Below are positions 47,668 to 53,345 of a stretch of DNA of 64,000 nucleotides, one piece after another. Numbering within the stretch: position 1 is the stretch's first letter; each line of letters begins with the position of its first letter. Below the pieces are notes generated by a model. The model made no database searches. It saw only the letters and a list, made by a program, of their open reading frames with translations, and was not told the DNA's origin. The stretch lies in assembly GCF_003019035.1 (NCBI RefSeq), contig NZ_CP027447.1; one strand, given 5' to 3'. Position numbers and translations under genes: made by a program. The DNA comes from Escherichia coli. Lineage in GTDB: Bacteria; Pseudomonadota; Gammaproteobacteria; Enterobacterales; Enterobacteriaceae.

Positions 47668-48888
<1,221 letters not shown>

Positions 48889-48917
48889 CAACAGCGCCTG
48901 ACGGCGCTGTGTCTGGC

Positions 48918-48977
<60 letters not shown>

Positions 48978-49000
48978 AAACCTGTTGAAAATATTGCTTT

Positions 49001-49040
49001 TGCAGGCCGGATAAGGCGTTCACGCCGCATCCGGCATGAA
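49001..49040. repeat. REP element downstream of the IS
   Basis: gcaggccggataaggcgttcacgccgcatccggcatg. Confidence 0.5.
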
Positions 49041-49069
49041 CAAAGAGCACTTCATCAGCAATCTGAAAC

Positions 49070-49180
49070 TCAACTAAACAGCCCAATCATCGCGGCACAC
49101 AGCACGGCAGCAACGGCAGTTTGTGGTGTGTGGCTGTCAACTGCGCCACTCGATACCAGATTAATTATTGATTCCAGCAT
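49070..49180 (-). CDS. yshB: Small membrane protein YshB-like, 36 aa
   Basis: Manual translation: MLESIINLVSSGAVDSHTPQTAVAAVLCAAMIGLFS with RBS GGAGAG; below the ORF-track size cut-off; identity to YshB recalled from memory. Confidence 0.5.
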   Translation of the reverse strand: MLESIINLVSSGAVDSHTPQTAVAAVLCAAMIGLFS

Positions 49181-49291
49181 AATGACTCTCCCCGTTTTCC
49201 GGGCAAGATCATACTGAACTTATCGGAACAGTAAAGCGCAAAATACCAGCAATTTGCGCTCAATAATCAATCTTTACTCACAAGCCGTGAA

Positions 49292-50701
49292 TCACTCCAT
49301 CCCTAGCTCTTTTAACTTACGCGTCAGGGTGTTACGCCCCCAGCCAAGTAAGCGCGCAGCTTCCTGTTTATGCCCCTGCGTATGTCGCAACGCGGTCGTC
49401 AGTAACGTCCGCTCCAACTCTGGTTGCGCTTCAGACAGCAAGTTTTGATGACCGGAACGTAGCGCCCGATCTGCCCACTGTGCTAACAGCGTTGCCCAAC
49501 TGTCCGGCTGCATTTGTGAAGTGCTTTCCGGTACGGTTGATTCAAACAGTTCACCGGGCAAATCCTGAATCAACACTTCCTGCCCGGCGGCCATCACCGT
49601 TAGCCAGCGACAGGTGTTTTCCAGCTGACGCACGTTCCCCGGCCACGCCAGGCGCGTCAGCGCGGCTTCGGTTTCCGGATGCAGCAACTTCGCTTCTACG
49701 CCCAGTTCGCGCGCGGCAACCTGTAAAAAATGGCGTGCCAGACGGGGAATATCTTCCCGACGCTCACGCAATGGCGGCAGATGAACGCGGATAACGTTCA
49801 GGCGGTGGAACAGATCCTCGCGGAACTTGCCTTCCTGCACGCGCAGTTCCAGGTTCTGGTGAGTAGCAGCGATAATACGCACATCCACTTTCACCGGCGC
49901 ATAGCCGCCAACGCGGTAAAACTGACCGTCTGCCAGTACGCGCAGCAAACGGGTCTGCACATCCAGCGGCATATCGCCAATTTCATCGAGGAATAATGTG
50001 CCACCATCGGCCTGTTCAAAACGCCCCTGACGAATGGTATTCGCGCCGGTAAACGCGCCTTTCTCGTGACCAAACAGTTCTGATTCGATCAAATCCTTCG
50101 GAATAGCCGCCATATTCAGCGCGATAAATGGCGCTTTGGCTCGCGGACTGTGGCGATGCAGGGCATGAGCGACCAGTTCTTTACCGGTGCCGGATTCGCC
50201 GTTAATCAGCACGCTAATAGAAGAACGCGAAAGCCGACCGATAATACGGAACACGTCCTGCATGGCTGGCGCTTCGCCGATGATATCGGTCGTTGGGCCG
50301 TTAAGCTGAACATTACGCGGCTGCTGCTGTTCCTGATAATGGCTGATGGCGCGCTCAACCAGCGCCACGGCTTCGTCGATATCAAACGGTTTGGGCAGAT
50401 AATCAAACGCCCCTTGTTGATAGGCGCTGACGGCAGCATCCAGATCGGAATGTGCGGTCATAATGATGACCGGAAGCATCGGATGGCGCTGTTTAATCTG
50501 CTTGAGCAGCGCCAGCCCGTCCATTCCCGGCATACGGATATCTGAAAGCAGCACATCCGGCGTTTTGCTCGCCAGCGCCTCCAGTACTTCCGCGCCGTTC
50601 TCAAATGTCGTACAGGTTAAACCCGCTCCAGCGAGCGCACGTTCAAGCACCCAACGGATGGAACTATCGTCATCGACTACCCAGACTATCCCTCGTTGCA
50701 T
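49292..50701 (-). CDS. glnG: Nitrogen regulation response regulator NtrC (sigma-54 activator)
   Basis: Start at [23 protein letters not shown] (469 aa); AAA+ GESGTGKE and GAFTGA motifs; track ORF has an extension. Confidence 0.95.
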
Positions 50702-51762: not shown

Positions 51763-51850
51763 AAAGCAGTCTCCTGAACAGGTTGCACCATTTTAGTGCA
51801 TTATAGCTTTTTACGGATAAAAAGCGCGAAGCATCAGAGAATTGACGGAG

Positions 51851-51875
51851 AAAAAAGCCCATGCAGAGATGGGCT
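51851..51875 (-). terminator. glnA rho-independent terminator
   Basis: On the minus strand: agcccatctctgcatgggct hairpin followed by TTTTTT. Confidence 0.6.
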
Positions 51876-51935
51876 GAAAGTTTCCACGGCAACTAAATCC
51901 CAGCGTTGTTGCGCCGGGTAGTACAACTTCAACTA
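51851..51935 (-). ncRNA. Candidate 3-prime-UTR-derived sRNA of glnA (GlnZ-like); position-based only
   Basis: About 60 nt of 3-prime UTR plus the intrinsic terminator downstream of the glnA stop; glnA 3-prime-UTR sRNAs are described in enterobacteria. Confidence 0.3.
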
Positions 51936-53345
51936 TTAGACGCTGTAGTACAGCTCAAACTCTACCGGATGCGGAGTCATACGCACACGGTCATCTTCTT
52001 CGCGACGCAGAGCGATGTACGCATCGATCGCTTCATCAGTGAACACGCCACCGGCTTTCAGGAACTCGCGGTCCAGATCCAGTTCGTTCAGTGCTTCTTC
52101 CAGAGAACCAGCAACCTGTGGGATCTCTTTCGCTTCTTCCGGCGGCAGGTCATACAGGTTTTTGTCCATGGCTTCGCCCGGATGGATCTTGTTCTTGATA
52201 CCGTCAAGACCGGCCATCAGCAGGGCAGCAAAACACAGGTACGGGTTAGCCGCCGGGTCCGGGAAACGTACTTCGATACGACGTGCTTTCGGAGAAGAAA
52301 CCACCGGAATACGGATAGACGCAGAACGGTTACGCGCAGAGTAAGCCAGCATTACCGGTGCTTCGTAGCCCGGGACCAGACGCTTGTAAGAGTTGGTGGT
52401 CGGGTTTGCCAGGGCATTAATCGCTTTCGCGTGTTTGATTACGCCGCCAATATAGTACAGCGCCTGCTCAGACAGACCTGCGTATTTGTCGCCAGCAAAC
52501 AGGTTAACGCCGTTTTTAGACAGCGACATGTGGCAGTGCATACCGGAACCGTTATCACCGAACATCGGTTTTGGCATAAAGGTCGCAGTTTTACCGAAGC
52601 GGTGCGCTACGTTGTGCACAACATATTTGTAGATCTGAATTTCGTCAGCTTTTTTGGTCATGGTATTGAAGCGGGTAGCCACTTCGTTCTGACCAGCAGT
52701 CGCTACTTCGTGGTGATGGGCTTCAACCACCAGACCCATCTGTTCCATCACCAGACACATTTCAGAACGAATATCCTGAGCCGAGTCTACCGGTGGAACC
52801 GGGAAGTAACCGCCTTTCACTGCCGGACGGTGACCTTTGTTACCACCTTCGTATTGGGTGGAGGAGTTCCATGCGCCTTCGATATCGTCGATAGCAACGT
52901 GGGAACCGGAGATAGATGATCCGAAACGGATGTCATCGAACAGGAAGAATTCAGGTTCTGGCCCGAACAGTACGGTGTCGGCAATGCCAGTGGAACGCAG
53001 GTAATCTTCGGCGCGCTTCGCAATGGAGCGCGGGTCACGGTCATAGCCTTGCAGGGTGCCAGGTTCAAGGATGTCGCAACGGATAATCAGGGTGGAGTCG
53101 GCGAAGAACGGGTCAATCACTGCGGTGGATGCGTCTGGCATCAGCACCATGTCGGATTCATTAATGCCTTTCCAGCCGCCAATCGAGGAGCCGTCAAACA
53201 TTTTGCCTTCTTCGAAGAATTCGGCATTCACCTGATGAGCAGGGATAGTGACGTGCTGTTCTTTACCTTTGGTATCGGTGAAGCGCAAATCAACAAACTT
53301 CACTTCGTGCTCGTTCAGCATCGTCAGTACGTGTTCAGCGGACAT
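51936..53345 (-). CDS. glnA: Glutamine synthetase GlnA
   Basis: 469 aa; [31 protein letters not shown]...; adenylylation-site region present. Confidence 0.97.

Follow-up and report, generated by a model that had tools for sequence, protein, structure and literature searches.

The yshB locus and its neighbors

The window analyzed in this study is a stretch of 64,000 nucleotides from one Escherichia coli contig (NZ_CP027447.1). Downstream of glnG, its minus strand contains a 36-codon open reading frame (ORF) that runs from an ATG at 49180 to a TGA ending at 49070 and is translated into MLESIINLVSSGAVDSHTPQTAVAAVLCAAMIGLFS (Table 1). The original prediction, made from the nucleotide sequence without database searches, had proposed a minus-strand ORF of this length with a GGAGAG ribosome-binding site, and its coordinates, ribosome-binding site and translation were all found to be as claimed. 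The GGAGAG core occupies 49191..49186 of the minus strand, 5 nt 5' of the ATG. The ORF starts 111 nt past the glnG stop codon (49292..49294) on the same strand, and 95 nt separate its own stop codon from the right end of an insertion sequence (48974), which makes it, as had also been proposed, the gene nearest to that end.

Table 1. Features of the yshB locus, with positions counted from the first nucleotide of the window.
Feature	Position	Strand	Evidence
IS621 (IS110 family), complete, 1279 nt with one CT core counted	47696..48974	+	Empty-site comparison
Intact REP hairpin downstream of yshB	49005..49041	-	Fold of 48975..49072, z = -4.0
yshB coding sequence, 36 codons plus TGA stop	49070..49180	-	ORF and translation, NF033841 score, identity to K-12 b4686, conserved frame
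Shine-Dalgarno sequence GGGGAGAG, 5 nt before ATG	49186..49193	-	Read directly; Shine-Dalgarno-like run in 71/71 loci
Predicted sigma-70 promoter of yshB, TTTACT-16 nt-TATGAT	49208..49235	-	Promoter scan and conservation
Hairpin after glnG, 9-pair stem GAGCGCAAA/UUUGCGCUU	49234..49261	-	RNA fold of 49181..49292
glnG (ntrC), conserved upstream neighbor	49292..50701	-	C-terminus directly upstream in 71/71 loci

The ORF scored 72.1 bits (E = 2.4e-20) with NCBIfam NF033841 ("YshB family small membrane protein"), more than twice the 34 bits required by this equivalog model, and the match spanned residues 1-36 of the protein and positions 1-40 of the 40 in the profile. Its translation is identical at 36 of 36 residues to that of b4686 of E. 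coli K-12 MG1655 (YP_002791260.1; NC_000913.3 4053647..4053757), the YshB protein that RefSeq lists as WP_000893994.1. When the locus was compared by megablast with 5,426 complete E. coli genomes, the feature was annotated by RefSeq as yshB, between glnG and hemN, and the gene together with its promoter (171 nt) was found in exactly one copy in 5,425 of them, always with at least 95% identity. The sequence, the location between glnG and hemN, the distance of 111 nt to glnG, the promoter and the Shine-Dalgarno sequence are the same as in K-12; the gene shows no differences, whereas in the window IS621 has entered the second REP, 95 nt downstream. Thus, what had been called a YshB-like small membrane protein is yshB itself, an already catalogued gene that belongs to the core genome of E. 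coli and related Enterobacterales and whose discovery PMC9731577 attributes to Hemm et al. (2008). The earlier description of the ORF as unlisted holds for the size-limited ORF track from which it was made but not for public annotation, in which RefSeq names the gene. The K-12 record for b4686 still reads "uncharacterized protein YshB." PF28018:YshB appears in the precomputed annotations of homologues; a local Pfam profile search returned no match for the ORF, either because the family is newer than the local copy or because the match was lost to filters that act on very short queries.

The bounds of IS621 were established by comparison with the empty site of strain ECCNB12-2 and the occupied site of strain KOr019, in which the same transposase is annotated as IS621. 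The CT cores lie at 47694-47695 and 48973-48974, and the flanks of the element together reconstitute ATCAGGCCTAC, the natural IS621 target inside REP elements (PMC11208160). The element sits in the second of the REPs between yshB and hemN and leaves yshB, its promoter and the first REP untouched; the junction of this insertion was found in about 11 of the 5,426 complete genomes. The transposase (47888..48868) matched the IS110 RNA-guided transposase model NF033542 with 252 bits as well as PF01548 and PF02371 (DEDD plus Tnp_20). In addition to this transposase and the REP target with its CT core, the element possesses, at its left end, the structured non-coding stretch of about 190 nt that is typical of IS621. 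This region (47696..47887, plus strand, 192 nt) has a strong predicted fold (-63.5 kcal/mol, z = -3.6) made up of a 5' stem-loop and two larger internal-loop domains, contains AUCGGGCCU, which matches the specificity of the target-binding loop of the bridge RNA (PMC11208160), and matched no family in Rfam 15.

When the right end of IS621 (48955..48974) is joined to 47696..47706, the sequence TTGCAG-17 nt-TATTAT, a good sigma-70 promoter, is formed. It exists solely in the circular element; the -35 of the integrated element faces a poor -10 in the flank. A circle-junction promoter has been described for IS110 elements (PMC11208160). An outward hybrid promoter reading from this end antisense into yshB was considered and rejected: the TTGCAG -35 at 48955..48960 lacks an acceptable -10, and no such promoter was returned by the scan. 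A GC-rich hairpin, ACAGCGCC-GTCA-GGCGCTGT, just past the transposase stop codon (48891..48910) scored as a terminator on the minus strand, and yshB read-through beyond the REP would probably stop there. A 102-residue, GTG-initiated ORF on the plus strand (48909..49217), antisense to yshB, was also set aside as a chimeric chance ORF, since it starts inside IS621 and crosses the REP.

Conservation of the reading frame and its flanks

An ORF of the size of yshB is by itself no better than chance, given that 59 ORFs of at least 20 residues overlap the 4.5 kb around it; what places it above chance are its conservation and its family-model score. Just 15 hits were obtained when 1.84 billion representative proteins were searched exhaustively with phmmer, a low number that is attributed to the poor representation of small ORFs in predicted proteomes. 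Several of these hits were mis-called, frameshifted or extended, yet clearly divergent full-length relatives were among them, most shared the motif HTPQTA-x2-A-x2-CA, and on every one of their contigs the small ORF came about 100 nt after glnA-glnL-glnG. The motif was turned into a degenerate DNA pattern, which was scanned over one genome per species (100,044 species) and yielded 76 matches, 74 of which were YshB homologues; the other two, in an Atopobiaceae MAG and a Fibrimonadaceae MAG, were set aside as chance hits. The homologues were found in Escherichia, Salmonella, Citrobacter, Enterobacter, Klebsiella, Kosakonia, Leclercia, Pluralibacter, Mangrovibacter, Siccibacter, Franconibacter, Trabulsiella, Shimwellia, Phytobacter and Pseudenterobacter and, outside the Enterobacteriaceae, in a few Erwiniaceae and Pectobacteriaceae (Izhakiella, Erwinia sp., Brenneria and Affinibrenneria), so that the frame is kept across about 20 genera.

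With start codons anchored on M[LF][EDG][ST], the homologues were 36 (53 loci), 40 (20 loci) or 35 residues long (1 locus), and all the differences were multiples of 3 nt. The window protein, with its 36 residues and an HTPQTA motif that opens the hydrophobic segment, falls within this family range of 35-40 residues. The 36-residue class comprises Escherichia, Salmonella, Citrobacter, Klebsiella and most Enterobacter, and the 40-residue class, with four added residues (consensus like AGVE) in the N-terminal helix-break region, comprises Kosakonia, Mangrovibacter, Franconibacter, Siccibacter, Brenneria and Affinibrenneria (examples of the length classes are loci L010, L018, L024, L035, L044, L071, L083 and others). 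YshB of Salmonella enterica subsp. diarizonae (L070) differs from the window protein at 2 of 36 residues (M31L and I32V). The position of the stop is fixed while its codon varies (TGA in 26, TAG in 25 and TAA in 23).

Among 73 distinct DNA sequences, the mean entropy at the three codon positions was 0.53/0.22/1.24 bits. As 13 codons were forced to be conserved by the scan pattern, the analysis was repeated on the other 23, for which the entropy was 0.69/0.33/1.15, mean pS 0.51, mean pN 0.20 and pN/pS 0.40. The yshB frame was open in all 73 sequences, compared with 18 and 6 for the other two sense frames. An antisense frame over the same span was open in 56 of the 73 homologues, which is probably a by-product of codon composition. 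As judged from these substitution patterns, the yshB frame is under purifying selection at the protein level. Conservation of the frame across the Enterobacteriaceae, which the original prediction had named as a check on its claim, was therefore borne out.

In 71 of the 71 homologous loci with enough upstream DNA, the ORF is immediately preceded on its own strand by the sequence that encodes the C-terminus of GlnG, at a median gap of 110 nt. In one lineage (L005-L007, homologue P0014), an SBP_bac_5 gene and about 700 nt of extra DNA separate yshB from hemN; the glnG-yshB linkage is kept there, which indicates that the conserved linkage is with glnG and not with hemN. The upstream alignment peaks in conservation exactly at CTTTACTG and GTATGATC (consensus CTTTACTG...GTATGATC). 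TTTACT-16-TATGAT was the sole promoter-like site within 48850..49400, where 0.3 would be expected by chance; TTTAC-N15-19-TAYNAT was found in 69 of the 71 homologous loci, and in all 71 a purine-rich, Shine-Dalgarno-like run occurs no more than 20 nt from the start. That yshB has its own promoter has also been reported (PMC9731577). Given this conserved promoter of the sigma-70 type, the region is not simply the 3' UTR of glnG, and the earlier placement of the ORF in such a UTR is right by geometry but not by function.

The stem of the hairpin after glnG is likewise conserved in the upstream alignment (gcgcAAA...TTTTGcgC), and the hairpin is probably the terminator of glnALG. At its 3' end the hairpin adjoins the -35 hexamer of yshB and overlaps it by 2 nt, and both are conserved across genera (loci L010-L085). 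A junction as compact as this could either couple the transcription units of glnG and yshB or insulate them from each other. On the other side of the gene, the first REP hairpin is likely to be the 3' end or a stabilizer of the yshB transcript. It partially matched naRNA4, a REP-derived Rfam family, with 38.2 bits, below the gathering score of 59.5, and this sub-threshold match was the only one obtained in the Rfam search of the yshB region. As would be expected of a REP, E. coli genomes contained about 180,000 matches to this sequence 3' of yshB. Farther upstream, K-12 annotates the sRNA GlnZ in the 3' UTR of glnA, just upstream of glnL (locus L086, 4429..4622), and its equivalent should lie at about 51,850-52,100 of the window.

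The YshB protein and its proposed role

No Lys or Arg occurs in the protein, which has two acidic residues and a single His. Its Kyte-Doolittle mean is 2.37 over residues 21-35, in agreement with the hydrophobic C-terminal half that had been noticed earlier, and the hydrophobic part is short, spanning 15-19 residues. AlphaFold modeling from 32 diverse family members gave a structure that consists of a short N-terminal helix (residues 2-13), a break (14-16) and a C-terminal hydrophobic helix of 19 residues (17-35); its confidence is moderate (mean pLDDT 73.8, highest at residues 21-30; pTM 0.35). The second helix opens with H17-T-P-Q-T-A22 and includes A25, C28 and A29. H17, T18, P19, Q20, T21, A22, A25, C28 and A29 are invariant in the 32 members, although this invariance is partly forced, as the scan pattern by which most of the homologues were found required the HTPQTA...A..CA residues.

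Native YshB has been detected intact by top-down mass spectrometry, while bottom-up proteomics misses it because it contains no tryptic sites (PMC12529367). Its abundance is given as above 11,000 copies per cell in stationary phase, a figure credited in PMC7549839 and PMC10502375 to the synthesis rates that Li et al. (2014) derived from ribosome profiling. Plasmid-expressed, His-tagged YshB escaped detection in one study. Tagged YshB is cut by the intramembrane protease RseP both in vivo and in vitro, and YshB was a class I RseP substrate in four assay formats, including one with purified enzyme; it was also cut by unidentified periplasmic proteases (PMC10470546). It should be noted that the constructs in the RseP assays were N-terminally tagged and that the authors warn that tags may alter topology (PMC10470546). 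The sequence and the cleavage by RseP are consistent with YshB being an inner-membrane peptide with a C-terminal membrane helix; insertion into the inner membrane is predicted from the hydropathy of residues 21-35 and from the modeled helix at 17-35, and the RseP cleavage lends it indirect support. Given that the protein has no positive charges, its topology is not readable by the positive-inside rule; RseP substrates are generally type II (PMC10470546), from which the orientation of YshB is probably N-in/C-out.

In size class, in the possession of a single hydrophobic helix and in expression under stress or in stationary phase, YshB resembles the small inner-membrane modulators MgrB, AcrZ, MgtS and CydX, which act on PhoQ, AcrB, MgtA and cytochrome bd, respectively. 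Several modulators of this type are also RseP substrates, like YshB. MgrB, AcrZ, MgtS and CydX have no sequence relationship to YshB, however, and YshB differs from them in the lack of any basic residue and in its family-specific HTPQTA...LCA motif.

The explanation that best accounts for the observations as a whole, and that we regard as very probable, is that yshB is a core gene that produces, from its own promoter, a 36-residue protein, which may act as a membrane modulator. The gene is transcribed from the predicted sigma-70-type promoter situated between the probable glnG terminator hairpin and the coding sequence, its mRNA is translated from the strong Shine-Dalgarno site, and the transcript is most likely ended or stabilized by the downstream REP hairpin. 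In the inner membrane, YshB would then use the conserved side of its helix to bind and modulate a larger membrane protein, and its abundance would be held down by RseP. The modulator mechanism is proposed by analogy to MgrB, AcrZ and MgtS.

Two further readings seem unlikely. The first is that the invariant His17 and Cys28 form a site that binds a ligand, a metal or a partner: they are 11 residues, or about three helical turns, apart and would thus lie on one face of the predicted transmembrane helix. The second is that YshB is functionally tied to the nitrogen-regulation locus. The absolute linkage to glnG across genera suggests that such a tie could exist, and, as the glnG hairpin abuts the -35 of yshB, read-through from glnALG might modulate yshB.

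Alternative explanations and implications

Alternatively, the region could be a non-coding 3' UTR of glnG, or a small RNA derived from it, in which the ORF is incidental. The location 111 nt after glnG on the same strand, with synteny in 71 of 71 loci, fits such an RNA, and analogous sRNAs are known in GlnZ after glnA and in NrsZ, which in Pseudomonas follows ntrBC, at the corresponding position (PMC9731577). The codon pattern largely refutes it, however: substitutions show 3-base periodicity with a pN/pS of about 0.4, length differences are all multiples of 3, and the position of the stop is fixed. The conserved Shine-Dalgarno sequence and the separate promoter, the native protein seen by mass spectrometry (PMC12529367) and the finding that yshB is not induced by nitrogen limitation (PMC9731577) all argue in the same direction. 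An incidental ORF in a glnG-derived RNA is therefore very unlikely, while yshB may have a dual role, as RNA plus protein.

Typical type I toxins contain Lys or Arg. YshB, being small and hydrophobic, could nevertheless be a peptide in the style of Hok, Ibs or Ldr that damages the membrane and is held in check by an antisense RNA, and it is a class I RseP substrate alongside the toxins HokB and HokE (PMC10470546). In contrast to type I toxins, which are multi-copy and patchy in distribution, yshB is single-copy at a fixed position in 5,425 of the 5,426 genomes, and its product has no Lys or Arg. The scan of 48850..49400 predicted no antisense promoter. Furthermore, the high copy number in stationary phase was reported without toxicity (PMC7549839). 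Taken together, we give a toxin of this kind scant probability. That yshB is a chance ORF behind a fortuitous purine-rich run, as the 59 ORFs of at least 20 residues in 4.5 kb and the antisense frame open in 56 of 73 homologues might suggest, is refuted by the maintenance of its frame across about 20 genera under purifying selection and by a score above the cut-off of a curated family model, and with the protein detected experimentally (PMC12529367) it is hardly conceivable.

We know of no phenotype of yshB in E. coli. The orthologue of Salmonella is found at the same locus, and it was there that a role was demonstrated: YshB promotes intracellular replication and virulence of Salmonella (Bomjan et al., 2019, J Bacteriol 201:e00314-19, as cited in PMC10470546 and PMC9731577).

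As a discovery, the result is minor, given that the catalogue entry for yshB goes back to Hemm et al. (2008) and that RefSeq annotates the gene in practically all of its E. coli genomes. It does demonstrate that a size-limited ORF track overlooks real genes below its threshold and that yshB could be recognized correctly from the raw sequence. For the study of YshB itself, the HTPQTA...C motif and the strict linkage to glnG provide modest leads.
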